Below are positions 1 to 31,729 of a stretch of 64,000 nucleotides of DNA, piece after piece (position 1 is the first letter of the stretch; each line of letters starts with the position of its first letter). Location: the IMG/VR virus record IMGVR_UViG_3300034759_000219. One strand, 5' to 3'. Both the position numbers and the translations under genes were made by a program. The notes under the pieces are model-generated. The model ran no database searches and was not told the DNA's origin. It saw only the letters and a program-made list of their open reading frames with translations. Source of the DNA: an uncultured virus (IMG/VR IMGVR_UViG_3300034759_000219) (taxonomy: Duplodnaviria; Heunggongvirae; Uroviricota; Caudoviricetes).

Positions 1-644
1 GTGATTATAGATTCAACTTCACTAACAATTTGGTCTATCTCATTTGAAATATCTTGGTCTGTGCTTAAAGTTATGTCATCTGCGTATCTAGTGTATACAA
101 ATCCATGTTTTTGGCAGTATTCACTAAGCGCCAAATCGTACTTTTTAAACGCTATATTAGACGCTACAGGGCTTGTTATAGCACCTTGTGGGAGTCTACC
201 TTTGTGTGCAACTAATCTTGCAACAAGCCATGCGCCCATCTCATTCCAACCTTCGGCTTTGAGAGCATTCAAAACTTGGTCACTACGTGTAGACGGGAAA
301 AAGTCTCGTATATCTAACGAGATAAGATACCTTTTACCCGCATGTTTAAGTGCACAAGTCTTAATTGTCTCGTTTTTGCGAAATCCAAATACCATCTCTG
401 GAAGTGGAATTTCATCTAACAAGTCTTTAAGTTTGCGATGTACAGTTTTAAGCAGTTTAGAATACTCTACGAGCTTTTCGTCCGCTTGATCTTTAGAATC
501 GCACAGGTACATATTTATCTCACGCTTTTTGCCGTTATGCTTTTGAACATAAAAATCTGTATACAATTTGCCATGAATTTTCTCTAAATAAGTAAGCGTC
601 CGAACTGGTATACCAACTTTAAAGCTTATATCTTCCAAAGTCAT
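1..644 (-). CDS. Retron-like reverse transcriptase (runs off the left edge of the window)
   Basis: Manual minus-strand translation from ATG 644: MTLEDISFKV...GFRKNETIKTCALKHAGKRYLISLDIRDFFPS...GRLPQGAITSPVASNI...FVYTRYADDITLS. Contains RT motifs DxxDFFPS, LPQGAxTSP and YADD, plus a retron-like xAxxH. Absent from the ORF track because its stop is outside the window. Confidence 0.92.
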   Translation of the reverse strand, partial: MTLEDISFKVGIPVRTLTYLEKIHGKLYTDFYVQKHNGKKREINMYLCDSKDQADEKLVEYSKLLKTVHRKLKDLLDEIPLPEMVFGFRKNETIKTCALKHAGKRYLISLDIRDFFPSTRSDQVLNALKAEGWNEMGAWLVARLVAHKGRLPQGAITSPVASNIAFKKYDLALSEYCQKHGFVYTRYADDITLSTDQDISNEIDQIVSEVESII

Positions 645-1234
645 ATTTCTACCACCCCCGAATCTATTAAGTCTTGAATTGTAAGTGTATCTTGCAACTG
701 GTCTGGTTTTTGCAAGTTTCTAACACCATGTGAACTTACAAGAAATGTTTCATCGCCTTTAGTAAATACCTTGCCATATTCGAACAAACCAGTTGCACGT
801 ACACGAAATAATTGTGTATGAGTCTGGCAGAGAAAATAATTACCCTGCCAAATTACTGTGGTTATCGCATCTGTATCATAGTTACAATAAAAAACAATTC
901 TGTCAATTTGCGGTTTCTTCTTAAGATTACCTAATGTGATTAGTATAGCTTCAAGTGCATTGTCGGGACTTTCTAATATCTCAGGAATAATGATTTTATC
1001 ATCGTACACAACAAACAAAACTGCTTTTGAACGAACCTCATGTTTTCTGCTCGGACGCGGATCTGCACAAATTTTGTATGTTGTAATCTCATATTGTTCT
1101 CTAAATCGCTCTATTATATTAACACTGTTCTTGTAGAGCGGATCTGTAACTCTCATGGACTCTATTGCTTGTTTGTCGCCAGATAGGATAGTAAGCATAA
1201 CTTGATTTAATTCTTTTTTACTGTACGGTCGCAT
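641..1234 (-). CDS. RT-coupled partner protein, possibly a degenerate RNase H-like fold
   Basis: 197 aa ORF with AGGAGG RBS. Its TGA overlaps the RT ATG (ATGA). The pattern KICAD...AVLFVVYDDKI...ALEAILITL...RIVFYCNY parallels RNase H. Confidence 0.6.
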   Translation of the reverse strand: MRPYSKKELNQVMLTILSGDKQAIESMRVTDPLYKNSVNIIERFREQYEITTYKICADPRPSRKHEVRSKAVLFVVYDDKIIIPEILESPDNALEAILITLGNLKKKPQIDRIVFYCNYDTDAITTVIWQGNYFLCQTHTQLFRVRATGLFEYGKVFTKGDETFLVSSHGVRNLQKPDQLQDTLTIQDLIDSGVVEI

Positions 1235-1249
1235 ATATTCACCTCCTAA

Positions 1250-1362
1250 AATGGGCGTATCGCCCTGTACTTGATGAGGTTACCTCTAAAAGAGCTGTTC
1301 TACAGAGCTCATAGATGCGAACGAAGTGAGCCCGGTTGAGCTCTACCCCACTTTCCCATTGA
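1250..1362 (-). ncRNA. Candidate structured RNA (possible retron msr/msd) upstream of the RT operon
   Basis: Non-coding, with short inverted repeats GGGCG/CGCCC, GAGGT/ACCTC and AGAGCTC/GAGCTCT, and an outer AATGGG/CCCATT pair. All pairings are short. Confidence 0.35.
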
Positions 1363-1451
1363 CCATCTCCTTTCTGTATACTTTTCTCTATATGTTCTCA
1401 AACAAATCTGTTTCATCTATTGTGTCCGAGAAGTTGGATTTTGCAGGCTTC

Positions 1452-1746
1452 GTTTCAATCGAACCTTAGAGGGATGGAAACAAGTTCAATGCGAAGCCCA
1501 GCAAGTGCACCTAAAAGTTTCAATCGAACCTTAGAGGGATGGAAACTGTCTTTGGCTAAGCTTCTCGAAGCTGCAGGAGAAGAGTTTCAATCGAACCTTA
1601 GAGGGATGGAAACGGCATATCGGTAGCGATTATAACGCATATCAGCAAGGGTTTCAATCGAACCTTAGAGGGATGGAAACATAGAATTCTTCAAATTTTT
1701 CCTTATCTTGTAGTACGTTTCAATCGAACCTTAGAGGGATGGAAAC
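1452..1746 (-). CRISPR. CRISPR mini-array with 5 identical 30-bp repeats and 4 spacers (35, 37, 37, 36 bp); no cas genes in the window
   Basis: GTTTCAATCGAACCTTAGAGGGATGGAAAC at 1452, 1517, 1584, 1651 and 1717. The reverse complement ends in ATTGAAAC, typical of type I-B/III repeats. It resembles Thermotoga-type repeats. Confidence 0.97.
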
Positions 1747-1941
1747 TTATGTTTCATTATATTACACAACTCTATATCACCCCTCTTTGAAATATGAAAG
1801 GATATGCTATTGTGATTAGATCATCCTCTGTTTGCGCGTCTCTGACTGTAAATTTTATTCTTTCCAACGGATCTATTACGAATACGATTATTTCTTCGTT
1901 GTATATTTTTAGCAAGTCGCCTGAAAATTTTACGATGATCC

Positions 1942-2118
1942 TCATAATCTCGCCTCCTCTTCAATTTTAGCTTCTATGTATTCATATAGATTGCGCAATT
2001 GCTTAGAATCGAGCTGGTCTAATAATAGCTTTATATCGTCTATATCGAACTCAACTTCGGCTTGTGGCTCGGAAACAAGATATGGACCTTCTGGTAAGGT
2101 CACAAATAACTTAGGCAT
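1942..2118 (-). CDS. Small hypothetical protein
   Basis: MPKLFVTLPEGPYLV..., 58 aa, with AGGAGG RBS. Confidence 0.6.
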   Translation of the reverse strand: MPKLFVTLPEGPYLVSEPQAEVEFDIDDIKLLLDQLDSKQLRNLYEYIEAKIEEEARL

Positions 2119-2131
2119 ATTTAGCCTCCTT

Positions 2132-3205
2132 TCAGAGAAGTGAAATGCTCACAGCGTTGCCATTATTTACAAATGTGATATACGACTTGGTAGGTGCAAA
2201 ACACTTTAGGTATGAAACTTCAGCAGTAGGTACACACGTAGGTACACACGGGGATATGAACGATACAATAGCAGAAACAGATTGCTACTTTTGTGTCGTT
2301 ATCTGCAATGCAGGCTCGTGAAATTCGTATTGGTTTGAGCCATGTAGCAAGACAAGCCTTGAATCTAACCGATCTTTATCCGTAAATACGACCTAATCGT
2401 AATAGTTTGGCATCCTCTTCAGCTATGTAACAAACAATCCAGACGGCTATAACGTAAAGTAAAACGGCATGTTCAGGTCGTATTTACGCTTAGAGATGTC
2501 GGTTACAAGCGCGCAATACGCGGTATACTACTTTTGTGTGTAGTCTGTAAGAATTGGAAAGGTCTATAATGGTAAGCTAAACGGGTTGCTTAGATTCAGT
2601 ACAAGCTCGCCATATGGTAGCGCTTTCATATGCAAAAACGCCATACGCATAATCTGTGACAACACCTATTCTGCAGCCGGCAAGCCGATATACACAGGTT
2701 TGCGGACTAACAACTCAAGCCGCTTGTCTGTATACGCGCTCAACGCCCCAGCTTGGTACGATAGCGATGCGGTATACTCGTCCGTTATAACTTGCGCTTG
2801 AGTCTGAACCTACGTATGAAATTCGCCATGCGACGTGTATCCTCCTGATTTGGAATATAACGTAATGGACGGGGGCGTATCAAAAAACAGGGCGTCTACA
2901 GGCACGTACTCAAATCCAAGGCTGAATAACCGCTGTGCGCCAATTATATTACCGTCTTTGTATGTGAATATGTCGATATACAGTATACTGTCCTGCTGGA
3001 TTAGCTTGGCTAAGTCGTACGTAGACACAGACTCAAGCGTCCCAGCCGTTATGTATGTGCGCAACAAACCTGAACCAAGTCCGATGTCCAACTGAACACC
3101 TGTAAACTAGTCCTGCGGGATATCACTAAACACCGCAGAACTGTACCTCTTTGCAAAACTCAACGTAACTTGCGGCTGGTCGTATACGTACGCCTTAACG
3201 TTCAA
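2132..3205 (-). CDS. Hypothetical protein, TAG-recoded (357 aa)
   Basis: TTG start after GAGGTG. Open to TGA with about 8 in-frame TAG codons. Includes track fragment 2810..3091. GTTAGTC motif at 3230-3236. Confidence 0.75.
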
Positions 3206-3244
3206 CTCAACAACACCTCTTCAGCTTAAGACTAACGCTAAGAT

Positions 3245-3266
3245 AAAAAAAGGGGCGCGTGCCCCG
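3245..3266 (-). terminator. Intrinsic terminator after tRNA-Ser
   Basis: GGGGC...GCCCC stem followed by a T-run on the minus strand. Confidence 0.6.
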
Positions 3267-3277
3267 TTAATTGTTCT

Positions 3278-3369
<92 letters not shown>

Positions 3370-3388
3370 AAAATCATGCAAACCAATC

Positions 3389-3532
3389 GTGAACCGCTCA
3401 TGACTGAAGTCACGAGCTTCCTGCTTCACAGACAAGACTTGCTACCAGTGACGTACCACCGATAGTAGAGGTCTTGCCTCCACAGGCATCGCCTTCCGGC
3501 TCGGACCGTCCCAGCCCTACGGGTCGCCAACG
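3389..3532 (-). mobile_element. Orphan IS200/IS605 (TnpB-type) right end / reRNA scaffold
   Basis: Minus strand GTAGGGCTGGGACGGTCCGAG...GCCTGTGGAG...GAAGCAGGAAGCTCGTGACTTCAGTCATGAGCGGTTCAC resembles tnpB 3' ends. No tnpB ORF is present. Confidence 0.65.
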
Positions 3533-3562
3533 CACAAGGTATACTCTCTCATGCACAACACC

Positions 3563-3985
3563 TCACGCAGCCGACCTTGCGGCATACCAGAACATGTCTA
3601 CTACATATCCGCGAGCTAACGCATCTACCGCAAGATTCATATTATCGTTCTTCTTTGAAACTTTTCTAAACTCAACCTTGATATCCTGCACGAGCTTGAG
3701 CATATTAGACACGTATTGAATTGCGACATCCGTCTTAGGCTTCCATGCGCCAGTTGCGAATTTTTCGATACCTGTATAGTCATAGCATAATTCAACTTGT
3801 GCAACTCCAAGCGACTTGGCATATTCTAACGCTTTAACCGTAGCAGTAAGTTCAGCGTCTACATTCGAACCATTTCGCTTATTCACCTCGCCACTTCGAA
3901 AGTCCTTGATTTTGCCGTTTTCGACAACTATGAACGCCCAACGGACCTTGCCGCGTATGACTGAACCATCCACATAAATTTTCAT
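3563..3985 (-). CDS. rnhA: Ribonuclease HI
   Basis: MKIYVDGS...NVDAELTA...LCYDYTGIEKFATGAWK...MNLAVDALA. Likely start is ATG 3985 (RBS GGAGGTG), not 4096. Confidence 0.88.
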   Translation of the reverse strand: MKIYVDGSVIRGKVRWAFIVVENGKIKDFRSGEVNKRNGSNVDAELTATVKALEYAKSLGVAQVELCYDYTGIEKFATGAWKPKTDVAIQYVSNMLKLVQDIKVEFRKVSKKNDNMNLAVDALARGYVVDMFWYAARSAA

Positions 3986-4281
3986 ACCATCACCTCCAGG
4001 ATTTTTAACATTGCGTCCGTAACGTACGAAACCATGGCATTGAAATCTGCCATGCCGGATTCGAGTCTGGACCTGAACTGGATCAAACTGTCGCAAATGG
4101 ACTTAGTTCGCTTAGAGCGAGGTGCTAAGACCTGAATGATAGACATCGCACATGAGGCGTCTATTAGCATATCTGTTACGAGCTTGTCTTTTTCGTCGCG
4201 TGAAGATGCGGTTTGCAGGCGTTGTATGTTGTTAAGAACTGTACGAAGTAGCGAATATGCGCGCTGGTATGCCCAAGACAT
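3982..4281 (-). CDS. Hypothetical protein
   Basis: 99 aa ORF in the operon; its stop overlaps the RNase H start. Confidence 0.7.
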   Translation of the reverse strand: MSWAYQRAYSLLRTVLNNIQRLQTASSRDEKDKLVTDMLIDASCAMSIIQVLAPRSKRTKSICDSLIQFRSRLESGMADFNAMVSYVTDAMLKILEVMV

Positions 4282-4308
4282 ACACTCAACTCCAAAAAAG
4301 TGCGGGCA

Positions 4309-4581
4309 TTAATTACCCGCACTCTTATTGAAGACTATGTATTTGAATATCGCTTTATTTATAACGACACCCCACAGCTTGTCGCCTTCGAATATATTGA
4401 GCACTTCGTTTCCCTTTTCGGCAAATTCGGCATATCGAGATTTCTTTGCGGTACCTTGCTGGACAACTACGAAATTACCGTGTGCGCCTTTATTCAATCC
4501 GGTTTGAGTCTTCGCTTCGCCTTTTCGACATTTTTCGATAGCAGTCGCTAAATCACTTGGAATTTTCACCATCAATAACAT
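4309..4581 (-). CDS. Hypothetical protein
   Basis: Likely start ATG 4581 after GGAGGGTG. Confidence 0.65.
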   Translation of the reverse strand: MLLMVKIPSDLATAIEKCRKGEAKTQTGLNKGAHGNFVVVQQGTAKKSRYAEFAEKGNEVLNIFEGDKLWGVVINKAIFKYIVFNKSAGN

Positions 4582-4624
4582 AATATCACCCTCCTTATAG
4601 CCCCCATAACCGGGGGCAAATTTT

Positions 4625-5074
4625 CTACCTATGTGTGGGAATATATATCTCAACTGGGATATCCATTTTAGAAGCATAGGCTACAATAATAGCTCCAACA
4701 TCTTCCCAGTTAAGCCCGCCTAACCCACACCCAAGGGCGGGAATTGCAATAGATCGAATACCTTCACGCTTATAGTTCTCGTGCAACCAACGCATACCGA
4801 GCTCGATATATTCAAGCTTAGACGGATTTCGCCAATCGTCTTTGGTAGGGAACATCAAAAACCACGGAAGCTGAGTACGTCTATAGACACAAGGCTTGCC
4901 AATTTTAAGCACGCCATCTGCGCACATATTCGAATATGCGACAAACGCATCGTAATAATTTCGCTTGAGTTCAAGCGCAAGACCTTTGCCCATAACGCCA
5001 ACTGTATTAACGGGAATCGTGAGCGTTTGCATCTTCGAATCGAAGATATTGCCACGAGAAACTGTAATGTTCAT
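4625..5074 (-). CDS. Macro domain protein (DarG-like ADP-ribosylglycohydrolase)
   Basis: GNIFDS...IPVNTVGVMGKGLALE...FPTKDDWRNPSKLEYI...SIAIPALGCGLGGLNW. Ends in TAG. Confidence 0.9.
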   Translation of the reverse strand: MNITVSRGNIFDSKMQTLTIPVNTVGVMGKGLALELKRNYYDAFVAYSNMCADGVLKIGKPCVYRRTQLPWFLMFPTKDDWRNPSKLEYIELGMRWLHENYKREGIRSIAIPALGCGLGGLNWEDVGAIIVAYASKMDIPVEIYIPTHR

Positions 5075-5085
5075 ACCAACACCTC

Positions 5086-7491
5086 CTATATTGGAAATAC
5101 GTAGACTATATCGCCATCATCATCGCCATCGATATCTTTTGCGATATCTTTTGGGATTAGGATTACTTTAGTACGTGCAGGTTGGACTTTGACTTTAGGC
5201 ATCGCGCCAACTATCGGATGTCTAACTGCAATCCATACGTTGTCTTTCATCTGGTCGGCTTGAGATGCTAATGCGACACATTGGTAATAAAGCTTCCTTG
5301 GCACAAGTACAGTATCTGCTGAACTAGTCGCATGCCTGCCGACTATAGCGAATCCACGAGGTTGAGTCATGGCTTTTGTAAACGTCATGCATACGGATTT
5401 CGTAAGCTTTGCAAGTTGAATTGCAAGCCAATGTTTGGTATACTCAGTTGGATACGATGCATAGTCTACAAGCGCATTAAAATACGCAAGCAAGGCATGT
5501 GCAAAGTCATGTAGCATGATCTCGTCGTCTACCTTGCAAAGTAGATTCAACGGCTTGAGCGAAAACCAACCGTGCATAGACGGGAACTCGATTTGCATAT
5601 TTACAAGCATATTCAAAGCTTCGACATTAACCGAATTCAGTGCATCGATTAAGCTTGCAAGGCTAGCTGGTGCTATACTAGCTAAGACAGCCAGACGCTG
5701 GTCTTTAGGTATCCTGTTTTTCGGTACGTCTAGCGTAATTTGCGCATTGTCTTTAAGATCTTGCGCAATAGTCTCGATTACACGTATCCAGTCAAGCGCT
5801 CTTGCGGCAAGTTCTTGGTTTTCAGGCTGCGTAGGTAGTCTGTCTATAGCTTTATCCAAGCCGAGTATCTGTTCTACAATCTTAGCTTGCGCATAATCCA
5901 CCGCAACACCGTCTATACGTGCATTATAGTCCATAGAATTGTCGATAAAGAACTTCTGGATGCCGACATATCCCGTAATAGTATGCATCTTACCGCCAAA
6001 CGGGAAGTTTATCTGAACTCGGCATTTATCTAATACGTCCTGTATAAACTTTTCGTCTAAGGCTTGTTCGATATCTATTACGGGCATATCAACACCTTCG
6101 CTTTGGAGTAGTCTCATACACGCTGCGACTATGCACGCCAGCTTATTTTTTCGTTTACCTTGCGTATTCTGGATTACGTCAATTGGGATCCAACGGCCAT
6201 TAAACGGTGCAAAGCATTTATCGAATTCGCCGATCTTAATACCTTTCGCTCTACCTGGCGCTTGGAGCTTATATACGTTTTCAGACAAATCGAAACCGTC
6301 TATATGCACCGTCTTCTCCCAGTTACTTGAGACGACATACCCGTCACCAGATAACGATACAGGCAGGTCGGTAATATAATTCAAAAACACATCAGTCTCT
6401 GGGTCTGTATGGTCTAGCATAAGTACCGTAGCCTGTATGAGCGGTAATTCAGGTCGGGTCACACCATCTACACGTAACCGCAGGCGTACAGGCCGCCGTT
6501 CCTGCCAACATACCGGATGTACAAAGAAAGCCGTATGAGAAGAGCGTTTCAGTTCGGTAAAGTGCGCAAACGGATTTACCAAGTACTCGATCAGGTTCCT
6601 GCGATGTGATGCGAGTTTTGGAACTGCAAGCGACATAGGACGGTTGACAGAACTGAATGAGAGCGCATCGAGCGTATCCAAAGTCGCTATAGATGCACGA
6701 ATGCGGTCTTGCGCACTAAGCGATTTCACATGTTCGAGTACAAGATCGTCCTTTTTAATGCTTACGAAGCACTTTTTAAGCAGTTTCGCGTACATACCGA
6801 GCGGTCTTTTCAGCGCAGGCAGCACGGACTTAGGGTAGTTGAAGCACTGCGCGACGTCCTGCGGCTCACCTTCGATGACAAGGAAGGTATTATCGTCCAA
6901 TTGCTTGAATACGCCATTGACGAAGAAAGTGTTTTTGGCGGTATCTTGTTCTTCATCTTGCGGTTCTACGTCTTGGTCTTGCAACGAGTCTATGGCGTGT
7001 ATTTGCAAATCTGTATGATGTACGGTTATATCAGCACGGCGGGCTATAGCGAGTATAGCGTCTATGAACTGTTCAGCGCTGAAGGACTTATAGGCTTTGA
7101 TCATAGGCAAGAGTGTACGCTTAGCCCACTTACCGAGTCTAAGCGGTGTAAACGCAGAATGCACGCCGATCTCGCCGATACCTTCCAGCGCATTAGCCAC
7201 GTCATTAGGCAGGTCAAACTGAGCGATGGTCTTGTCGATATCGAACTTATTCTCTATACATGCGACAGCGAATAGTTTAGACGCATCGTCTTTATGTACG
7301 GCAGCTTCGCATTCGTGCTTTGCGAACTTGAATACAGGTTCTAGCGCATCAGGTCGAGTTTGCATGATATACGGCACAACGCGGTCGAACCAAAACGACG
7401 TGACCGGCCCCATAAGCGCCTTGACCTTCGACGCCTGATACAGGGACTTATCGTTAGCGGGGGTCGAAAACTCTTGAGTAAAGTCAATCAC
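5086..7491 (-). CDS. Putative single-subunit double-psi beta-barrel RNA polymerase (standard code)
   Basis: 801 aa with no internal TAG. Contains GRAKG and IPIDVI (beta-like) and a C-terminal RHP...DIDGDDDGDIV (DxDGD catalytic-type motif). Ends in TAG. Confidence 0.65.
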   Translation of the reverse strand: MIDFTQEFSTPANDKSLYQASKVKALMGPVTSFWFDRVVPYIMQTRPDALEPVFKFAKHECEAAVHKDDASKLFAVACIENKFDIDKTIAQFDLPNDVANALEGIGEIGVHSAFTPLRLGKWAKRTLLPMIKAYKSFSAEQFIDAILAIARRADITVHHTDLQIHAIDSLQDQDVEPQDEEQDTAKNTFFVNGVFKQLDDNTFLVIEGEPQDVAQCFNYPKSVLPALKRPLGMYAKLLKKCFVSIKKDDLVLEHVKSLSAQDRIRASIATLDTLDALSFSSVNRPMSLAVPKLASHRRNLIEYLVNPFAHFTELKRSSHTAFFVHPVCWQERRPVRLRLRVDGVTRPELPLIQATVLMLDHTDPETDVFLNYITDLPVSLSGDGYVVSSNWEKTVHIDGFDLSENVYKLQAPGRAKGIKIGEFDKCFAPFNGRWIPIDVIQNTQGKRKNKLACIVAACMRLLQSEGVDMPVIDIEQALDEKFIQDVLDKCRVQINFPFGGKMHTITGYVGIQKFFIDNSMDYNARIDGVAVDYAQAKIVEQILGLDKAIDRLPTQPENQELAARALDWIRVIETIAQDLKDNAQITLDVPKNRIPKDQRLAVLASIAPASLASLIDALNSVNVEALNMLVNMQIEFPSMHGWFSLKPLNLLCKVDDEIMLHDFAHALLAYFNALVDYASYPTEYTKHWLAIQLAKLTKSVCMTFTKAMTQPRGFAIVGRHATSSADTVLVPRKLYYQCVALASQADQMKDNVWIAVRHPIVGAMPKVKVQPARTKVILIPKDIAKDIDGDDDGDIVYVFPI

Positions 7492-7779
7492 GTCAACACC
7501 TCCTTTGCACAGACCTAGGTGGTGTCTTGAGGTTGTATGTTACAATGGCACAAGCCAGCGCACACATAGGTAGTAAGTGTGTCTTAAGCATTTTCCAAGC
7601 TGTGTCTTTAACAAGTTCGCAACACTACCTATGTGAATAGTTTCACTCAGCCCCCCTATAGTATACAAATGTATACTATTTTCTGCGATGCGGATTAAAT
7701 GCGGATTTGTTATCGATTTGTCCGTAGCTGGAGATTTGTTCGCATCACGAACCAAAATGCGTAAGTGCGGATTGGGCGG

Positions 7780-8238
7780 TTAAGATTTTAACAATAGCAT
7801 AGTCCAGTGCACAGTGATACGCATATACGGTATCTCGCTGATAGTGTCTTGGTGTGTCTCTAAGTATCTACCTGTAGTTGGGCTTATGACCTTGACATCG
7901 CCATCCCAGCCGAATTTGTCGCGTGTGGCTTGAAGTTCCACTAATTGCCCACGCTGGTTTTCGCCTTGTACACGTACAGCTGTGGCTTTAACAAGCCCGT
8001 TTTCGCCAAAAATCGACATCTCGCCGTCTAAGATCTCTATATACTTAACCGTACTATCCCGCTCAAGTTGTACAAGCATATCCCGCGCACGGGTTAAGTC
8101 GCCCAACACCTTAGGATCTCTTAGGTCTTTGCCGTACACGTCCGCTAGCACCTGCAAGATGGGCACTAACCTCAACGGCAACACCTGCACGGTCTTGTAC
8201 ATATCGTACGCGTGTCTTATGTATTCGCCTGCCAACAC
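7780..8238 (-). CDS. Hypothetical protein (5' end abuts IS remnant)
   Basis: 152 aa ORF; the frame stays open up to the IS end at 8294. Confidence 0.65.
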   Translation of the reverse strand: MLAGEYIRHAYDMYKTVQVLPLRLVPILQVLADVYGKDLRDPKVLGDLTRARDMLVQLERDSTVKYIEILDGEMSIFGENGLVKATAVRVQGENQRGQLVELQATRDKFGWDGDVKVISPTTGRYLETHQDTISEIPYMRITVHWTMLLLKS

Positions 8239-8293
8239 CTGGTCGTTATCGCGTATCGCGTTAATCGCGCAATCTAACAGATACCTAATCCTA

Positions 8294-8555: not shown

Positions 8556-8649
8556 CTCCTCTTGGCTTGTTTCAAAAAAACAACACCTCTTAGCTGGCTA
8601 TTTTTTTAAAATGGCAAAGACCTAGGTATATTTTAAACGAGGCGGTTGA

Positions 8650-8826: not shown

Positions 8827-8872
8827 CCTCTTAGCGTCTTTACGAACGAAGGGACGGGGGCGCGCCTGTGCG

Positions 8873-11617: not shown

Positions 11618-11656
11618 GTGACAGGCGAACTGGTGTTGTACTTAATTAACGGGCAG

Positions 11657-22210: not shown

Positions 22211-22214
22211 GAGT

Positions 22215-23714: not shown

Positions 23715-23715
23715 C

Positions 23716-25128: not shown

Positions 25129-26287
25129 CGGAATTTACGTCTGGATAGTAGCCAGCCATTCTGATAGGCCTATAAACAACAGAATATATAGGTCTGAAGA
25201 GATGATGCGCTAGGTTAAAACATGGACTAAGCCATACAAAAAGCCAGTCTTAAGGCACCATGACCAAACAGATGACGCAATTGGGCGGGTTGTACAGTAG
25301 ACATACGTGGACAAGTCGAGATGGAATACCGCTATACACGAGCTTGGTGTTGGAGATGAAGTGCCATTTCCAGATGATTAGACAGGTTAGCTTGTGATCA
25401 AGTAGCACATAACAGACCCAGATGCAGTACAAAAGATCAAAGATGGCAGGTATAACACTGTGAGTGTCGGCTTCTCTGCGGAACATATGTACTGCAGTAT
25501 ATGCGGTACAGATTGGTTTGAAGAACAATGCCAACATGAACAGGGAAAGGAATATGACGGAGTTGTATAGTATGGTATTCCAACTGGAATTATATACAAC
25601 GAAGTCTCGTTTGTTAACGTACCAGCTGATGACCATGCAATTGTAGCAAAGCAGATAAACAGCGATGGAGAAAGCGTGATTATATCGAATACTTCCTTTC
25701 GCTACATGTACGTCGATTGTTAGAAAACTGTTAGTCAAGTTACAGAAAGCAATGCTAACAGCGCCGTACATAGTAACCAGCATGATTAGGAGGTTAAAAG
25801 TATGGCTGACGAAACCAAAGAAAAGGAGTATGAAGCGCTTGTAAACTAGTACAAGGAGCTGCAAGAAAAATACGACTCTATGATAAACTCCGTAAAAGCC
25901 AGTATTGTAGACGCCATAATCGATGCAAAGCAGCAACTTGGGCATGAGTATTCAGATGAGCAAAAACAGAGCTTACGTGAAAAGTACTAGGCTATGTCTC
26001 TGGATGTACTGAACGCTATATACGATGAGCTAACAGACGAATGCGAGTTCATAGGTAAGTTTATCTCAGATTCAGCTGCACAAACAGAACAAAATAGTAA
26101 CTGCGACTGTAAGCAAGAGCAAACACAACAAACCAATCCAGAGCCAATACAGGACAAAGAACCAGATCCAAAGGTAGCAGAAAATCCTGTCGGCTTCATA
26201 AACAAAGTTGGAGAGGTTAAGGAAACTCAACTGGATTAGTTACAGTACGTCAAAAGGATATTAAGAATCGGAGGGGATATTAAATGA
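25121..26287 (+). CDS. Prohead protease / scaffold, TAG-recoded
   Basis: WTKPYKKPVLRHHD...AIGRV...KIKDGRYNTVSVGF...CSICG...EVSFVNVPAD. An in-frame internal RBS and ATG at 25802 suggests a nested scaffold protein. Confidence 0.85.
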
Positions 26288-27036
26288 TCGCAAAGTACAA
26301 AGCGCTGAAAAGGCCAATGCGCGTATTTGCAGAAGGAAAGGTTATAGGTGGCGGAATCAATCTTAAACCAGCTCCATACCTGCCAATTGTTGAAGTTACA
26401 CCAGATACACAACCAGTCGTTATAAAGAAAGGTACATTTGTAACACTTGATTAGAATGGCTTCGTTATACCAGCATATCCTTCTCAAAAATAGCTTACAT
26501 ACTCAGCTGTTGATGTACAATTTGGCGTTATAAACATCGACACTGGCGAACCAGTTCAAGCAGCTGGTACATCTACCTAGACGATCTCTGGCAAACCAAT
26601 AGGAATCGCATTGTATGACTATTTTCTAAACCTGCCTTAGTTCCAAGCAGATTACAACATTCAGCCTGAAGTTGGTATATTAACCGAAGGCTTGATCTTA
26701 CTCGCACTTGACAGTGCTCATTCAAGTGTCCAATACAAACCAGGCGATGTACTAGAACTCGACTCTGCAGGTTTCCCAGTCCCAGTTGCATAGCTTAATG
26801 TGACAGTTGACGAATCTGGAAGTGCCACACATGAAATCAAACTTGATGCGTCTAATTTTGTCGGTAAGCTTGTCAGAGTAATCGATGCCACAGATTAGTC
26901 ACTTGGCTGGACTGGCGGGTATGAACTTGTCGCACCAGCATCTGGCTTAGACCTGCCTGGTATTGAAAATGGCGGTATACTTGATGGCATAGACGAGACC
27001 ACAAAGAAAGGCTTACTAATCAAGCTCGGCTTCTGA
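26284..27036 (+). CDS. Probable head decoration / structural protein, TAG-recoded
   Basis: Lies between protease and capsid; open with TAGs; ends in TGA. Confidence 0.6.
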
Positions 27037-27050
27037 TGGGAGGGTCATTG

Positions 27051-28265
27051 ATGATTAACATACCTGAACTCGAAAAGATGGTTGAATACACAGTAGAAAA
27101 GATTTTGTACTCTGAAAATGCAGATTTCCTGCCTTTGCAGAAGGACAAGATCAAGGAATCACTATAGCGAGACAGCAAGCTCAAACTCTTAAAACAAGTT
27201 ATGAACAACAATGGCTACGTAGACAGATACTCTGCAAATTCTGCAGAAGATGCAGGTAGAATTGAGCTGAAAGACTTGGTTACATCGCCAGAATTCAAAG
27301 TACTGTTTCCAAAGGTTATAACAGACCTCGCACTTGAGACACTTGAACCAGCTTTGGTCTTGCAGAATATGCTTGAAACTATACAGTTCAAAGGCTCAGT
27401 TGCAACAATACCTGTCTTCTCAGGCTTTGGTGGCAACCTTGATATCCCAGAAGGCGGAGAACCACCTGTATTCAATGTAAAAGTTGGTGCATTCGAACAA
27501 GTAGTCATCGGCAAATCTGGTGTCATGGTTGAACTTACAGAAGAGACAATCAGATACAGCGCATATGACATCTTCAATATCCACGTTAAAGAAGCACTTA
27601 AGGCACTTGCAAGATGGAAAGAATACAAAGTTGCTAAGATGATCACAGGCAATGCAAGTGAAGAAATCGACGGTGGTACCGGAAAAGACATTTCTGGTGC
27701 AGACAATGGCGGTCTTACATTGTTTGACATCATGGAAGCAGCCACAAAGCTTATAAACAAAGGCTTCAATCCAGACGTCATAATCATGAACCCACTTGCA
27801 TATCCAGTCTTTATGTATAATGGTACACTCACAGCTATGTTCTATGCATTCGGTCAAGGCTCACTTGCAAACTGGCCTGCTCTTGCAAAGATAGCTAATG
27901 CTGAATTCTACAATAAAGTCGCTGGCAATAACATATCTGGCATCTCACTACCAGCTGGCGTATTTGGTAAAGGGCTCAGTATAGTACTGTCTCCATTCAT
28001 GCCATTCACACCAGCAAGTGACCAGACACCAGCTAAGACTGACATAATAGTAGCCGACTCGTCCGCACTTGGTTACCTTGTTGTAGACCAACTGCCAACA
28101 ACAGATGAGTTTGCAGATCCAATTAGAGAAATCAGGAAATTTAAGATTGTAGAAAGGTATTCAGTTGTACCTAAAGCAAAAGGTGCAGGTATCGCAAAGA
28201 TCAAGAACGTCAATGTTGTGAAGACATTCGATCCAATTCCATTCTACCAGATTCAACCACAATGA
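27051..28265 (+). CDS. Major capsid protein (404 aa) with a single TAG at codon 39
   Basis: RBS GGGAGGG before TTG/ATG 27048/27051, in frame with track ORF 27201. One TAG at 27165-27167. Capsid-like motifs IPEGGE and DVIIMNP. Confidence 0.85.
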
Positions 28266-28340: not shown

Positions 28341-28877
28341 TTGAAAGTTGCAAACTTTTTAAGGAACACAGCTGAATTTGAAGATGGAACTGTGTATGAA
28401 CACCGAGGCAAACGCTGGCTGTCCTTAGAACCACTTCACTATGACGTACACAGATACTGGCTGATTTGCGACTATCCAGGTTGGATGGATAACTTAATCA
28501 AGCGTGTGAACGTCCCAACTGAGGAACAAGCGCAGTTTATGGACAAGGTATTGCAATCGAGTTCTGCAATAAGCGACATGGTATTATTTCAGATAACCAA
28601 CCCAGACTAGGCTATGGAGCATATCGTGTTAGACAACTACGAATACCTGTCTGTTGTCACACCACAGTGTCTAAACTATTTTATCCACGACTGCTTTTTC
28701 TTCATAACAAGCACCGGAAACGACACAAAACTATACTGTTGCGCATTGTGTACGCAGGATAACATACCAAACGATAATATCATACTTGCATTAATCAACA
28801 ACGACAAGGAAAGCGTGTTTAACTTAAAACTAAAAGTTGCAGACAAGCACAACTGTACACGCGTCTGTACTATTTGA
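28341..28877 (+). CDS. Hypothetical protein; two track ORFs joined across one TAG
   Basis: 28341..28610 (TAG stop) and 28614..28877 are in the same frame. Confidence 0.6.
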
Positions 28878-28900: not shown

Positions 28901-29245
28901 TCATTCTTTTTCAATCAACAAATTTTCTGTTTCTACGTACACTTCGGCTGGATGCATATACTTGAACGAATAACTTAAAAATGCAAAACCGGGCATAAAT
29001 TGATTTTGTAAGTCGATCAATTTGTCTGTCGCGCTTATATTTGTAACTCTTATCATCTTATCTTCTGGTATTTGGCCTATACCTAAAGCTTGACAGACCA
29101 TTCTCTTTACCTCGTCTACGTATATGTCGCTAATTACTTTGTAGAACATACGCTCTAAATACGGATTATGCAAGTTTTCTAATACTCTGCCTATATGTGC
29201 AAGATCTTCAAATACCGCCATATCGACCTTTACTTTTACTATCAT
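28901..29245 (-). CDS. Hypothetical protein
   Basis: 114 aa, no TAG. Confidence 0.65.
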   Translation of the reverse strand: MIVKVKVDMAVFEDLAHIGRVLENLHNPYLERMFYKVISDIYVDEVKRMVCQALGIGQIPEDKMIRVTNISATDKLIDLQNQFMPGFAFLSYSFKYMHPAEVYVETENLLIEKE

Positions 29246-29550
29246 TTGCTCACCTTCTCTATGTATACTTTACTAACCGGCAATTTGTACTTGTTTTCTG
29301 TATCTATCTGTACACGTTTTTCAGGTGGGATAAACTCAAATATAACATCCAAATACTTAGCCATTTTGGGACTAAAATACACATTTTTGGGATCTAATTC
29401 ACACGGTTCATCATATACAAATTCACATAGTGCCTTGATTTCGTCTTCGTATACTTGCTGTATCTTTTGAGCCATTTTGCTTATCACAATCTCAGTTTCA
29501 CATGCCTTTACAGCTTGAGCTATTTTACTTAGCGATTTGAATATAGACAC
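29242..29550 (-). CDS. Hypothetical protein
   Basis: 102 aa, coupled to the next gene. Confidence 0.65.
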   Translation of the reverse strand: MSIFKSLSKIAQAVKACETEIVISKMAQKIQQVYEDEIKALCEFVYDEPCELDPKNVYFSPKMAKYLDVIFEFIPPEKRVQIDTENKYKLPVSKVYIEKVSK

Positions 29551-29790
29551 GTCTATAAACTATTTCAAACCTAACACCTCCTTGGTATATTTTCACCAAA
29601 CTTCAAGACTTAAACTGTGTGGTCCAGCTTCAACAACTATTGGCTTTTGGACGTACTTCAACTTAAGCACCTGCAAAGCAATTTAACTGCTTTGCTTCTT
29701 TTTCAATCCTCTTAATAGCTAGTTTCACAGGCAATTGCGGCTGGATGCCCCCGATTAAAATCGGGGGAGGAAAGCCGCCTAACCTCCCTT

Positions 29791-30048
29791 CTATGCAACG
29801 TATTTGTACCTCCAAGAGGCAAAACATACAAACTTGCAATCATCTGGTTTAGCCTGTTGGGTTAGTCTCTTGCCAGTATTGATATCATGCAGGCTTATTC
29901 TGTTGTTTATGTGCCCGCCAACATAGCACAGGCCGTATTTTGGGTGTTTAACGTAACTGCCACGTTTGAAGCCAAGTGACCTTGTACCACCTTGTCTCCT
30001 GCGGACACCACCTTTGGCGAACTGCAACATATGCAATTGCCTTCGGTT
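29791..30048 (-). pseudogene. IscB/IsrB-family C-terminal fragment
   Basis: RRQLHMLQFAKGGVRRRQGGTRSLGFKRGSYVKHPKYGLCYVGG...ISLHD. Confidence 0.7.
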
Positions 30049-30049
30049 A

Positions 30050-30490
30050 TTACCCTTTTTTATTCAACTTTTTAAGTTCATAATATATCTCTTCCATTCG
30101 TTGTAAATCTTCTTTAGGTCGATACTTATATTGTAAACTACCTTTATTAAGTTTTAAAAATTCAATCATTAAGATAGCCTGTTTCTGTTTAATCTTCATA
30201 ACATCAACTATTTCAGGTAAAAGCCAACGCATTGTATTTGGACTCAATCTTAACATATATATTTCCTTACGTCGTTCCCTTTTTTGACCATTAGCAATAT
30301 ATCCTTCTCCAATTAGTGTTTTAATATTTTCTAGTGCTTCAATATTTGTATTTCCTATATCTAGAATCGGTCTTAAACGATATCCTGAACTAATTCTTTT
30401 ATCCTTCTCTTTACAGATACCTATCCATCCTTCTCCATCTATAATCCCTGCCAAATATCCCTTCTCAATATCTGTTAACATCTTTATCAT
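30050..30490 (-). CDS. LAGLIDADG homing endonuclease
   Basis: GYLAGIIDGEGWI...IGNTN...KQKQA...LKKLNK. AT-rich relative to its surroundings. Confidence 0.88.
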   Translation of the reverse strand: MIKMLTDIEKGYLAGIIDGEGWIGICKEKDKRISSGYRLRPILDIGNTNIEALENIKTLIGEGYIANGQKRERRKEIYMLRLSPNTMRWLLPEIVDVMKIKQKQAILMIEFLKLNKGSLQYKYRPKEDLQRMEEIYYELKKLNKKG

Positions 30491-30512
30491 TCTAATTGTT
30501 CACCTCTTAATT

Positions 30513-30656
30513 CTGCCGTAGAGCCTGGAGCTAGGGTGGCACCCCGGGGTACTTATTAGCCCACTGGACGTAGCGGATTGGGTACCGCTTGGCCTAGTCA
30601 ACCGTTGCCTTGCTGCCGCCATCGCAAGCCCCCGAATTTATTCGGGGGTAGTTGAC
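30513..30656 (-). ncRNA. omegaRNA-like scaffold
   Basis: GTCAAC...GTTGAC closing stem, internal CCCCCGAAT/ATTCGGGGG hairpin, and a CTAGCTCCAGGCTCT segment. Confidence 0.65.
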
Positions 30657-30791
30657 TTGGCACAGGAACTTTATACGTTCTAACTGTGTATTTGCTCATT
30701 AAACTTCCTCCAAGTACGATCGTACCATTGCTGTACTGTTTTAACAACAAGCCCTTACTACTCCCCTAAAGGAGAGTAGCTTGCGGGCTTG

Positions 30792-31031
30792 CTATTTACT
30801 GTCATTATACACCACACATAACAATAGCGTTAAGGATGGTGTATAAAAATGAGAATCAACTGGTACAAGCTTTCTACTTAGGTTTGCCTGTGGGTCCAAG
30901 TCGACCGCGAGGATCTTAACAGGCCGTTTGGCGGTTCTGTATATAGACGTGCAGACAATGTATGATAGAGTAGTCTTGCCGACACCGCCTTTCATATTAG
31001 CAAACGCGACTTTTTTCGGCAAGTCAAACAC
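30792..31031 (-). pseudogene. parA: ParA/Soj N-terminal fragment, truncated at an IS end
   Basis: ANMKGGVGKTT...AVDLDPQANLS, then similarity is lost. IS605-like hairpin at 30748-30791. Confidence 0.8.
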
Positions 31032-31180
31032 CCCCTGTCAAAAACATTATATACCATAAAGGTCAGGCAAGTCAAAATATAAACGAAAGCCACGGTATAT
31101 ACTAAAATTGTGATGTATATATTTCATTGCCAAGATATTTGTGGTATAATCAAGTTAGCAAAGCCGGAGGAGGTGTGTGT

Positions 31181-31729
31181 ATGACGCTTGTGTCTGTGAT
31201 TATATTTTTCGTCGTGATCAGTGTACTTGGCTTAGTTTTGTTGATAATGAGGGCTCTTGAAAAAGCCGGTCTGTACTCGCCAGACAAAGCTTATGATACT
31301 TTGAAGAAAGAGGAAGAAGAAGAAAAGGCTAGGCGAATACAACAGATCGCGCAGACTGCAAATTTACCAAAGTTAGAACCAGCGCAGTTGAAAGAAGAAT
31401 GGAAGAAAAGGTTTATGGACATAGTGCGCAAAGACGATTTCGAGCAAACTCTGTGGGATATGGAAGAGCCGATTTTGTACATGTTTGAAAACGGTTTGTT
31501 AGTTGTATATGATGGCGAACTCGGACTGCAAGCGCCTGTATGTGTCGCAAAATACCCACTTAATAAGCTCAAAGGATACATCGAACGGGATGAAGACTTT
31601 TGCTATGACATCGAGTTTGACGGCGACTTTTCAGACTGGGACAAGTGGTACGCACATAGGGAAGAGCTATTCAGTGTGCAAGAAATACTTGACATATTGG
31701 ACTTTATAGACAAAGTAGAGGTGAGCTAG
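31181..31729 (+). CDS. Membrane-anchored hypothetical protein (standard code)
   Basis: GGAGGAGG RBS, N-terminal transmembrane segment, extended -10 TGGTATAAT upstream. Ends in TAG. Confidence 0.75.
   Translation: MTLVSVIIFFVVISVLGLVLLIMRALEKAGLYSPDKAYDTLKKEEEEEKARRIQQIAQTANLPKLEPAQLKEEWKKRFMDIVRKDDFEQTLWDMEEPILYMFENGLLVVYDGELGLQAPVCVAKYPLNKLKGYIERDEDFCYDIEFDGDFSDWDKWYAHREELFSVQEILDILDFIDKVEVS

Follow-up and report, generated by a model that had tools for sequence, protein, structure and literature searches.

The question raised by this locus is how one phage genome can end some genes at TAG and read TAG through in others. The window, meaning the whole 64,000-nucleotide stretch of the uncultured virus record IMGVR_UViG_3300034759_000219, was analyzed by calling 54 genes by hand from ORF lists and tabulating TAG in each. 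Under table 11, ORFs of at least 100 amino acids covered 35% of the window; with TAG as sense they covered 98%, compared with 61% and 69% when TGA and TAA, respectively, were read as sense. The TAG-poor class comprised 21 genes, whose 4,150 codons include 2 in-frame TAGs; the genes ended in TGA (11), TAA (5), or TAG (4), and one gene left the window. The TAG-rich class comprised 33 genes with 710 TAGs in 15,354 codons (4.6%; 2.0–8.2% per gene). Against 811 GCN codons, TAG would make up 47% of the alanine codons of this class. Its genes ended in TGA (26) or TAA (7), and TAG stops could not be scored because those frames were read through TAG. The features are listed below.

3563 to 11056, minus strand: left block, ten genes, all TAG-free (one RNase H-like, one with a Macro domain, the 801-aa RNA-polymerase-like gene, and seven without a family match)
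5086 to 7491, minus strand: TAG-free gene of an 801-aa protein with a predicted two-barrel RNA-polymerase-like fold (homologues, AF2, Foldseek, VIA-align)
11677 to 27036, plus strand: TAG-rich late block 1, with a 1624-aa protein (87 TAGs), SAM decarboxylase (8), TerL (22), portal (26), a protease/scaffold-like protein (12), and others
27036 to 28265, plus strand: major capsid protein gene, single TAG at codon 44
28901 to 30490, minus strand: TAG-free island of three called genes within the late region; the last gene encodes a LAGLIDADG homing endonuclease
31127 to 31729, plus strand: TAG-free gene of a protein with an N-terminal membrane helix, ending in TAG and adjoining the SLT lysis enzyme
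31747 to 32412, plus strand: SLT-domain lytic transglycosylase, candidate endolysin, 10 TAGs (Pfam SLT 2e-16; PHROG endolysin)
33932 to 33951, minus strand: terminator-like hairpin with T-run directly after the tRNA (from the sequence)
33955 to 34030, minus strand: suppressor tRNA, anticodon CUA, on a tRNA-Ala frame (ARAGORN; Rfam tRNA score 63.8 bits, gathering score 29)
34127 to 35290, plus strand: PhoH-like ATPase, 24 TAGs, divergent from the tRNA
35287 to 63925, plus strand: TAG-rich late block 2, with sheath (21 TAGs), tube-like proteins (4 and 8), baseplate (31), and giant proteins (94, 45, and 89)
36450 to 36869 and 41522 to 41989, plus strand: TAG-free genes embedded in late block 2 (ORF tabulation)

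A preliminary description of the sequence had noted TAG-free early genes and TAG-bearing late genes, and the per-gene tabulation of all 54 genes confirmed this. The two sets were clearly separated by TAG density. However, early or late class is no clean rule, with exceptions both ways. The plus-strand genes 36450–36869, 41522–41989, and 11141–11686 were TAG-free within late blocks, gene 28341–28877 had one TAG, and the minus-strand genes 2132–3205 and 33006–33410 had nine and three, respectively. Likewise, internal TAGs had been ascribed to packaging, structural, and lysis genes, which held for most of them but not for the capsid gene, with one TAG, or the membrane protein adjacent to the lysis enzyme, with none. 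The two-class pattern is real and no assembly artefact or chimera, since the early/late junction was crossed by contigs from two other studies (X10 record 1, 990–13666; X9 record 18, 8613–15928).

TAG stops had been described at 4625, 5086, and 31729. All three were recovered, but the count rose to four with gene 10670–11056 on the minus strand, and three of the four (4625, 5086, and 10670) belong to the left block. The next TAA or TGA lay 9, 4, and 6 codons beyond the first three stops and 12 codons beyond the fourth; in gene 31127–31729, the TGA six codons past the TAG and the start codon of the following gene overlap (ATGA). Backup stops, reported earlier as 5–10 codons on, are thus present, yet barely exceed chance. 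A stop within 12 codons was also found downstream of 22 of the 49 TAA- or TGA-ending genes, and therefore the probability for all four is ~0.04. The 801-aa protein ends in ...GDDDGDIVYVFPI, followed by TAG, and four homologues, those at 99, 43, and 42% identity among them, share this end residue. The shared end, found also in diverged homologues, shows that at least one early gene truly terminates at TAG. In the related locus L117, a TAG-free thymidylate kinase gene adjoining genes at 3.7–6.3% TAG likewise terminates at TAG, a backup stop lying 2 codons further on.

Elsewhere, TAG is most likely read as alanine by the phage's own alanine-type tRNA, judging from the identity elements of the tRNA, the residues aligned with TAG in four genes, and TAG/GCN interchange in orthologues, all of which agree with the alanine assignment made at the outset. 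The acceptor stem of the tRNA(CUA) contains G1-C72, G2-C71, G3:U70, G4-C69, and A73, with CCA encoded. In homologous tRNAs of related loci, G3:U70 is kept, whereas positions 5–7 and 66–68 vary on both sides. Alanyl-tRNA synthetase recognizes G3:U70 without reading the anticodon; therefore, the host enzyme could charge this tRNA, and a phage synthetase would be unneeded. No synthetase was found within the 64-kb window. The pairing of the tRNA with PhoH is kept in relatives, and in L143, L117, L165, and L152 the tRNA is likewise followed by a hairpin. No promoter was found in the sequence around the tRNA; the hairpin directly after it makes the tRNA look like a stand-alone unit.

Alanine was the most frequent residue at the TAG sites of PhoH, SAM decarboxylase, SLT, and TerL. 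Across the 24 TAG columns of PhoH in 108 cellular homologues, alanine accounted for 31% (next, lysine, 8%) and ranked first at 9 columns, and DE-TAG-QN in Walker B aligned to DEAQN. Aligned TAG sites corresponded to alanine at 5 of 7 positions and valine at 2 of 7 in SAM decarboxylase, and to alanine at 2 of 4 in SLT aligned to Slt70. The TerL signal was modest, with alanine first at 0.19 and serine at 0.12 (20 of 22 TAG columns, 93 distant homologues). At 9 columns, TAG was common to the PhoH orthologues of all four lineages compared, and its replacements were most frequently alanine (GCN, 17), then serine (12). According to the accessible part of one report, allo-tRNAs with G3:U70 and a CUA anticodon insert alanine at UAG in E. 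coli (PMC5389517). As proposed here, this combination sufficed there for efficient UAG-to-alanine decoding in bacterial translation; however, those were laboratory constructs acting on one reporter codon, whereas here a canonical 7/5 tRNA of a natural genome would decode hundreds of codons.

The TAG split recurred in related metagenome contigs and in G002, a complete T5-like phage of an unrelated lineage, which corresponds to the deposited record of a phage listed as an isolate on Aeromonas hydrophila, a standard-code bacterium. The comparison covered the cultured Aeromonas T5-like phages AhSzw-1 (MG676225.1), AhSzq-1, and Akh-2 (genus Shenzhenvirus). Like the window, G002 has its own tRNA(CUA) of the same type with G3:U70 and A73, located in a tRNA array. 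In these phages, too, TAG is abundant in late genes and absent from several replication genes and the pre-early DNA-transfer gene; the host, however, is gamma-proteobacterial, and overall density is lower (2.0% of codons). In G002, DNA polymerase, origin-binding protein, A1-type pre-early DNA-transfer protein, and ligase had no TAG; tail fibre, tape measure, holin, and TerL had 84, 66, 16, and 15, respectively. The major tail protein had only 3, and helicase (16) and SbcC (24) were TAG-rich despite early-type functions. By analogy, this split lends indirect support to the early/late labels, with which the TAG-free thymidylate kinase gene of L117 also agrees. When a T5-like phage of E. coli with the standard code was used as reference, TAG sites most frequently matched alanine (7 of 25 and 10 of 37). 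A search of the complete genome of G002 for RF-1 domains found no release factor. The Akh-2 paper nowhere uses the terms stop codon, suppressor, or genetic code, and the GenBank annotation of this phage breaks the tail gene into small ORFs.

The two-code architecture is already known for TAG-to-glutamine (code 15) phages; alanine is new here. The comparison set comprised crAss-like and Lak phages, the Garnet/Topaz/Sapphire clades, and phAss-1. As far as the accessible parts of the sources describe, in-frame TAG restores full-length late genes in these phages, which carry their own tRNA(CUA), keep a standard-code-compatible gene subset, infect standard-code hosts, and were proposed to delay late and lysis genes by the stop-codon block (10.1101/2021.08.26.457843; PMC10607447). 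The window shares the first three traits, and its candidate host is also standard-code. The preliminary statement that recoded codons concentrate in late and lysis genes of code-15 phages matches what is accessible of the Borges preprint (10.1101/2021.08.26.457843). In contrast to glutamine in code 15, the window would use alanine with a tRNA on a tRNA-Ala frame bearing G3:U70, and GCN cannot reach TAG in a single synonymous step, whereas CAG can. The candidate host phylum, Thermotogota, and the non-gut habitat also differ. The first 50 kb of phAss-1 contained one ORF with 110 TAGs (per-ORF maximum, 4.5%), so dozens of TAGs per gene are not peculiar to the window. Nevertheless, TAG density in ORFs of at least 150 codons was 3.7% in the window versus 1.37% in phAss-1, and the TAG share of its amino acid's codons was 47% versus 26%. 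Jade/Agate phages, in the accessible part of the same preprint, read TGA as tryptophan and carry a "code-change module" (tRNA, TrpRS, RF1) upstream of the lysis cassette (10.1101/2021.08.26.457843). There, as proposed here, a standard-code part would enable a later recoded part tied to lysis timing; stop codon and amino acid differ, and the window has neither synthetase nor release factor in 64 kb.

To our knowledge, TAG as alanine is in no official code table. We propose, with a probability of roughly 0.6, that the window belongs to a large two-code phage in which TAG serves as a translational gate on late functions, the timing being inferred. The 20 sequencing runs listed included no run recorded as RNA. 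Comparison indicates that UAG means alanine in 33 of 54 genes, as their most frequent alanine codon. Sequence and textbook identity rules suggest the phage tRNA(CUA), charged by host alanyl-tRNA synthetase, as decoder. Almost no TAG is held by the genes presumably meant for an untouched, RF1-bearing host, a set including the RNA-polymerase-like, RNase H-like, and Macro-domain proteins, and four such genes use TAG as stop. As the tRNA accumulates, full-length reading would become possible for the TAG-rich genes of virion, packaging, lysis-enzyme, and auxiliary functions. TAG would thus gate late functions translationally, atop a transcriptional cascade, with RF1 probably outcompeted or disabled by some factor. 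Very-high-output genes, such as capsid, may be limited to one or a few TAGs. The earlier interpretation is therefore partly supported: alanine, two gene sets, a true stop, and no release factor gene stood, but a clean class rule did not.

Alternatively, TAG may have drifted neutrally into genes translated while a suppressor was present, UAG termination having been abolished for another reason or a strong suppressor being simply carried; the contrast would then be a by-product without gating. We regard this as possible, albeit unlikely. In L143, the capsid orthologue (75% identity) carries 2 TAGs, neither at the position used in the window, first TAGs fall at codons 2 to 86 with no evident clustering near starts, and auxiliary genes (PhoH, SAM decarboxylase) carry TAG as well as virion genes, as drift would predict. 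However, TAG reached its 47% share although GCN to TAG requires more than one synonymous step, and the nine shared PhoH TAG codons were kept across lineages at only ~37–51% identity. The base following TAG was C in 28.6% of cases versus 16.6% after other codons (p 9e-18), a bias not found after GCN codons, and two unrelated phage lineages keep the same gene classes TAG-free.

Rather less probable is a code barrier, where late genes are unreadable without the phage tRNA and gene exchange is limited, timing being secondary. Those excluded could be the host prior to takeover, standard-code phages in co-infection, or satellites. A barrier would fit the other tools of mobile-element conflict in this phage, namely a CRISPR mini-array and a retron-type reverse transcriptase, and the coexistence of recoded and standard-code relatives (the locus of the capsid homologue, L084, is standard-code). 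Nevertheless, a hijacker would gain most from the capsid gene, which has almost no TAG, and a barrier by itself does not predict which genes stay TAG-free.

The early label of the left block, under the gating model, draws on its largest gene. The AF2 model of the 801-aa protein (pLDDT 82.2) matched RNA-polymerase structures in all 50 Foldseek matches listed, in most cases their largest (beta-prime) chain, with a best E of 3.4e-4, and VIA-align gave Z 15.0 and rmsd 4.1 Å over 273 residues against Pol II chain B. The largest TAG-free gene is thus predicted to fold like a two-barrel RNA polymerase, which indirectly supports the label. The block also deviates in composition: nine of its ten genes had GC of 0.41–0.48 and CpG o/e of 1.15–2.11 (10670–11056: 0.57 and 0.85), compared with 0.33–0.46 and 0.45–0.96 in late genes. 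Segments 3267–3525, 8292–9513, and 10550–10677 are swapped in other strains. Therefore, its lack of TAG could partly reflect recent import. As a full account, in which the left block and the minus-strand islands, one with the LAGLIDADG homing endonuclease, came recently from standard-code genomes and have yet to acquire TAGs, this is very improbable. TAG-poor genes with late-type CpG o/e exist (capsid, 0.45; 41522–41989, 0.65; 11141–11686, 0.54), gene 2132–3205 has left-block composition yet 9 TAGs, L117 shows the TAG split without a CpG split, homologues of the 801-aa gene at 42–43% identity share the same end, and G002 is split as well.

That the host itself reads UAG as sense, so that no switch is needed, is extremely unlikely and disfavoured: although host identity is a candidate and the window lacks a release factor, the TAG-poor genes hold 2 TAGs in 4,150 codons with four ending in TAG, the 801-aa C-terminus is conserved at TAG, the phage record matched by G002 names standard-code A. 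hydrophila, and prfA is found in the candidate host, contrary to the sense-UAG host considered earlier. The phage CRISPR repeat matches, at 29 of 30 bases, arrays beside cas1 in a Thermotogae MAG, in which prfA (485.6 bits against a cut-off of 423.25) and prfB were both above cut-offs. Spacers from reference genomes gave no match to the window. The host phylum is likely Thermotogota, a link made by CRISPR repeats alone, and this candidate phylum keeps RF1, as judged from prfA above cut-off in 141 of 151 Thermotogota genomes. Gene and family searches of the 64 kb bore out the earlier statement that the window contains no release factor or recognizable RF1 antagonist. For the proteins with 87–94 TAGs, a 10% full-length yield needs ~97.5% read-through per codon.

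The two-code pattern in the window is real, conserved and replicated. PHROGs and Pfam searches of the 64 kb identified a fragment of a large tailed phage. The packaging and virion genes comprised the terminase large subunit (TerL), portal, a head protease/scaffold-like protein, major capsid protein, tail sheath, tube-like proteins and baseplate wedge, and the other genes included an SLT lytic transglycosylase, PhoH, SAM decarboxylase, RNase H, a Macro domain protein, a LAGLIDADG endonuclease and a reverse transcriptase. ARAGORN and Rfam located two tRNAs, tRNA-Ser(GCU) and a tRNA(CUA) (33955-34030, minus strand), and the Rfam scan gave no further RNA family in the window. ORFs of at least 100 aa covered 35% of the window under table 11, and 98%, 61% and 69% when TAG, TGA and TAA were read as sense, respectively. 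As expected for a recoded TAG, reading it as sense recovered TerL, portal, sheath, PhoH, SAM decarboxylase and SLT as long homologous ORFs. The window shows several features by which alternatively coded phages are recognized, namely, a recoded stop in frame, its own matching tRNA and a subset of genes compatible with the standard code.

Internal TAG density and stop usage were then tabulated per gene, a check proposed in the preliminary description, for 54 window genes called by hand from two ORF lists. Two classes were found. The TAG-poor class consisted of 21 genes with 4,150 codons and 2 in-frame TAGs, ending in TGA (11), TAA (5) or TAG (4). The TAG-rich class consisted of 33 genes with 15,354 codons, 710 TAGs (4.6% overall; 2.0-8.2% per gene) and 811 GCN codons, and these genes ended in TGA (26) or TAA (7). 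Counted as an alanine codon, TAG made up 47% of the alanine codons of the TAG-rich class and was the single commonest, followed by GCA (379). The rule that early or accessory genes lack TAG and late genes carry it held insofar as there are two sets of TAG density, but the split was not clean by strand or function. The exceptions are listed below, together with one TAG-ending gene discussed next.

Genes departing from the class rule, and a membrane-protein gene ending in TAG
Major capsid gene: one TAG
28341-28877: one TAG
11141-11686: no TAG
36450-36869: no TAG
41522-41989: no TAG
2132-3205, minus strand: nine TAGs
33006-33410, minus strand: three TAGs
31127-31729: TAG-free gene with an N-terminal membrane helix, stopping at TAG, directly upstream of the SLT enzyme

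All three TAG stops described previously (genes ending at 4625, 5086 and 31729) were confirmed in this tabulation, and a fourth gene, 10670-11056, also ended in TAG. The largest TAG-free gene (5086-7491, minus strand; 801 aa) ends GDDDGDIVYVFPI and then TAG; homologues 99, 43 and 42% identical to it stop at the same residue, indicating that this TAG is a real stop. The three stops had also been said to be backed up by a second stop. Such stops were indeed present 9, 4 and 6 codons on, and 12 codons on in the fourth gene, but the signal beyond chance was weak (P ~0.04 for four of four), since a further stop within 12 codons was also seen in 22 of the 49 genes with a TAA or TGA stop. At 31727-31750, six codons after the TAG stop of the membrane-protein gene, a TGA shares bases with the start codon of the SLT gene (ATGA), so that read-through would end exactly at the next start codon. 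The SAM decarboxylase gene (16548-16907) ends Glu-TAG-TGA, with TAG immediately before the stop.

Next, we analyzed which amino acid stands at TAG sites. Against 108 cellular PhoH homologues, the 24 TAG columns averaged 31% Ala, followed by Lys at 8%, with Gln outside the top eight. Ala was the commonest residue in 9 of these 24 columns; among the nine are the invariant Ala of residue 380 and Walker B, whose DE-TAG-QN aligned to DEAQN in PDB 3b85. TAG sites of SAM decarboxylase, whose best solved relatives were PDB 1tlu and 1vr7 from Thermotoga maritima, stood opposite Ala in five of seven aligned cases and Val in two, and those of SLT stood opposite Ala in two of four. A weaker signal was given by TerL, in which Ala was first (0.19) and Ser second (0.12) over 20 of 22 columns with 93 distant homologues. 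Codon alignment of PhoH orthologues from four lineages showed TAG common to all at 9 columns, and where TAG was replaced, GCN/Ala was the commonest partner (17), followed by Ser (12). Genetic code 15, in which TAG is Gln, was rejected for the window because Gln did not rank among the leading residues in TAG columns, where Ala came first.

The NCBI code tables (Biopython 1.87 copy) assign TAG to Q, L, Y, E or W in tables 6, 15, 16, 22 and 27-32, and never to A. Within the literature readable without subscription, we found no report of natural UAG-to-Ala recoding in phages. The window PhoH (34127-35290) stands in a public protein collection translated with Q at every TAG, giving DEQQN for the family's DEAQN; its public relatives (set P0002-P0013) similarly carry Gln at TAG, with IIDEQQN against IIDEAQN in others. 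Pipelines that assume code 15 place Gln at sites where the protein has Ala.

Alanyl-tRNA synthetase recognizes the G3:U70 pair and does not read the anticodon. The acceptor stem of the window tRNA(CUA), read from the sequence, has G1-C72, G2-C71, G3:U70, G4-C69 and A73, thereby showing the G3:U70 wobble pair and A73 of tRNA-Ala identity. G3:U70 is named as the main determinant for this synthetase in PMC5389517. Charging of the tRNA(CUA) with alanine in the infected cell is predicted from these identity elements. Together with Ala at the TAG sites of PhoH, SAM decarboxylase, SLT and TerL, the G3:U70 pair and A73 leave the claim that TAG is read as alanine well supported. A degenerate pattern derived from this tRNA hit 3 loci in IMG/VR and 59 in JGI metagenomes, with 67 tRNA matches. 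Among these, 59 of 67 had G3:U70 and A73, a fraction showing spread rather than an unbiased rate, since the pattern itself selects tRNA-Ala-like frames; stem positions 5-7 varied with compensating changes. As to origin, the suppressor tRNAs of a complete T5-like Aeromonas phage (G002) and of locus L083 were rejected as recent copies of the neighboring tRNA-Ala(UGC), with identity at 51 of 75 and 53 of 76 bases. The best matches to the suppressor in the candidate host, Thermotogae MAG G001, were tRNA-Thr and tRNA-Gly genes and were uninformative. An inverted repeat upstream of the window tRNA folded no better than shuffles (z -0.92 and +0.90).

Ten of the loci found with the tRNA pattern were relatives of the window. 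PhoH identity to the window was 51% in L143, whose capsid was 75% identical, and also 51% in L126, and was 36-38% in the L117 group, L152 and L166. The tRNA of the relatives adjoins PhoH, with a hairpin after the tRNA. The split of the window recurs in these relatives. In L117, six genes at 0-0.4% TAG lie beside genes at 3.7-6.3%, and one of the six, a thymidylate kinase gene, ends in TAG with TGA two codons later. The capsid orthologue of L143 is TAG-poor as well, its 425 codons containing 2 TAGs, at sites unlike those of the window. An Atlas search with the 181-aa protein that heads the late block yielded no usable match. No GenBank phage matched 18651-28265 in a megablast search, and TerL found no relative in IMG/VR. 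There, the PhoH profile returned distant PhoH genes and nothing closer, and the capsid protein returned one distant locus, L084, of standard code.

An independent replicate was provided by G002, an IMG/VR match rated 100% complete (115,739 bp). It equals GenBank Aeromonas phage AhSzw-1 (MG676225.1), a T5-like phage deposited as an Aeromonas hydrophila isolate, in every residue outside TAG sites, and its tRNA(CUA) carries G3:U70 and A73. T5 genes fall into pre-early, early and late classes. Over the 119 ORFs of G002, TAG amounts to 2.0%. The DNA polymerase (812 aa), origin-binding protein (981 aa), A1-type DNA-transfer protein, NAMPT and ligase had 0 TAGs, whereas the tail fiber had 84, tape measure 66, J-like protein 34, pb4-like protein 25, holin 16 and TerL 15. 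The helicase (16) and SbcC (24) are contrary to a simple early/late rule, and among virion genes, the major tail protein (3) and portal (6) are low in TAG. Where the pb4-like tail protein has TAG, Ala is the most frequent residue in a standard-code T5-like phage of E. coli, at 7 of 25 sites for G002 and at 10 of 37 for a further Aeromonas phage, Akh-2. At the G002 sites themselves, Akh-2 keeps TAG in 15 cases and carries GCN in 5. Akh-2 (MK318083.1), deposited as an isolate, resembles AhSzw-1 in having a G3:U70 tRNA(CUA) and TAG-rich late genes. In its GenBank annotation, small ORFs stand in place of an intact pb4-like tail gene, and the Akh-2 paper nowhere uses the words stop codon, suppressor or genetic code.

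Part of the TAG-freeness of the left block (minus-strand genes, 3563-11056) may reflect imported DNA. CpG is over-represented in 2132-10426 (observed/expected 1.15-2.11) and under-represented in the late genes (11141-63925; 0.45-0.96), with GC at 0.41-0.48 and 0.33-0.49 (mostly 0.38-0.43), respectively, and left-block cassettes are swapped between strains. However, relative L117 has the TAG split with the CpG split absent, and genes of native composition, such as the capsid gene, are also TAG-poor. The GpC step is not avoided, with an odds ratio of 1.21-1.28 in both the early and the late part. Near-identical DNA was found in 20 listed runs from 8 studies, labeled subsurface, soil, anaerobic digester and mixed culture, none of which is on record as an RNA-type run; two of the entries may be where the window itself came from. 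Left-block segments 3267-3525, 8292-9513 and 10550-10677 are replaced or deleted in strains of other studies, the tRNA-Ser region included, which suggests that this block is a fast-changing accessory region. An assembly artefact was rejected, as the early/late junction near 11.1 kb is bridged by contigs of two other studies (X10 record 1, 990-13666; X9 record 18, 8613-15928).

We then analyzed the link to a host. The window carries a CRISPR mini-array at 1452-1763, with five copies of a 30-base repeat and four spacers of 35-37 bases; no cas gene was seen in the 64 kb window, and the spacers had no match elsewhere in it. In other strains, 1451-1951 is replaced by a different stretch of 1,885 bases, which is probably another or a longer array. 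G001 contains 13 copies of the phage repeat, matching at 29 of 30 bases, and one of its two arrays lies ~340 bases from cas1. In digester run X5, phage-matching stretches from 3606 and from 11040 are both preceded by the same 26-base CRISPR-repeat-like end, and look like host spacers against the window phage. The 25-base core of this end occurs with 1-2 mismatches in arrays of three other genomes among 151 of Thermotogota (18-75 copies each), with one match in a fourth. No CRISPR spacer from candidate host genomes (11, then 78) matched the window. G001 has prfA (485.6 bits; cut-off, 423.25) as well as prfB, and prfA exceeded the cut-off in 141 of the 151 genomes, which suggests that the likely host, linked to the phage only via the CRISPR repeats, terminates at UAG.

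For the proteins with 87, 94 and 89 TAGs, a read-through of ~97.5% per codon is needed for 10% full-length product and ~99.2% for 50%. The base after the 709 internal TAGs of the 33 TAG-rich genes was C in 28.6%, compared with 16.6% after other codons, and G in 20.6%, compared with 29.6% (p 9e-18). This bias is compatible with selection on termination context; after GCN alanine codons, the following base was at baseline. The RF1 puzzle is not unique to the window phage, as the published code-15 phage phAss-1 has one ORF with 110 TAGs; LR745208.1 was rejected as the comparator because it has 0.15% TAG and is not TAG-recoded. The preliminary description had recognized no release-factor gene in the window, and this was borne out, since PHROGs, Pfam and NCBIfam searches with the TAG-free genes lacking a family match returned nothing release-factor-like and no family for most of them. 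Nor was any single early protein conspicuous as a candidate binder of RF1. Similarly, the complete G002 genome has no RF-1 domain gene.

Taken as a natural code, UAG-to-Ala is very probable. A wider reading, to which we assign a probability of roughly 0.3 and which is thus tentative, is that this code, overlooked by databases, exists in several unrelated phage lineages (among them the present clade linked to Thermotogota, the cultured T5-like phages of Aeromonas and dozens of metagenome contigs whose tRNA(CUA) has G3:U70) and that an unrecognized early TAG-free factor removes or blocks host RF1. The code would have been reached through the anticodon-blind alanyl-tRNA synthetase. The RF1-disabling factor, also required because proteins with ~90 UAGs need more than 97% read-through per site, would make UAG a full sense codon in the infected cell. 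Of the temporal switch proposed earlier, the two-code pattern stands, and gating of late genes is the best reading, as we infer. That recoding times late gene expression is an old idea, and the two-code architecture was already described in Borges et al. (10.1101/2021.08.26.457843). Four aspects had no precedent in our searches: the amino acid, the type of tRNA, the phylum of the candidate host and the extension to cultured phages. If true, UAG has a further natural meaning with a simple route to it, as one tRNA gene is enough when the synthetase ignores the anticodon. Standard-code annotation shreds the late genes of the isolate-derived Aeromonas phage records in GenBank. Since the gene-class pattern recurs in a T5-like phage that can be grown, both recoding as a timer and the RF1 question at ~90 sites per protein are directly testable.

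Finally, the 801-aa TAG-free protein was modeled. Pfam and PHROG returned nothing for it, nor did sequence and profile searches of the PDB, and no relatives were found in JGI metagenomes or GenBank phages. An AlphaFold model from 17 sequences (pLDDT 82.2, pTM 0.77) retrieved RNA-polymerase structures in all of the 50 Foldseek matches shown, mostly the beta-prime chain, with a best E of 3.4e-4 and low TM, including the phage AR9 non-virion polymerase and the ASFV polymerase. In VIA-align, chains of the second-largest subunit scored Z 15.0 across 273 residues, and the C-terminal motif DGDDDGD may correspond to the DxDGD metal site of two-barrel polymerases. By its model, the protein is a candidate two-barrel RNA polymerase, a function that would support the early label of the TAG-free genes. 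Macro and YspA domains are fused to this family in one distant homologue; in the window, the 801-aa gene is followed by a Macro gene. A local motif is shared (E 0.002) with the C-terminal end of the TAG-rich 1624-aa late protein (11677-16551, plus strand; 87 TAGs), whose acidic motif has TAG as its fourth position (GDDD-TAG-D), where L152 reads GDDDGD. As a lead, the phage may have an early standard-code polymerase and a late recoded, possibly virion-borne one. Such a pair would resemble the two-polymerase programs of N4, phiKZ/AR9 and crAss-like phages. The gene at 3-644 (minus strand, running off the left end), TAG-free and adjoining the CRISPR array, encodes a retron-type reverse transcriptase; the partial protein scored 155.5 bits with the St85 retron family of NCBIfam and also matched Pfam RVT_1, whereas Rfam found no msr/msd RNA family in the window.
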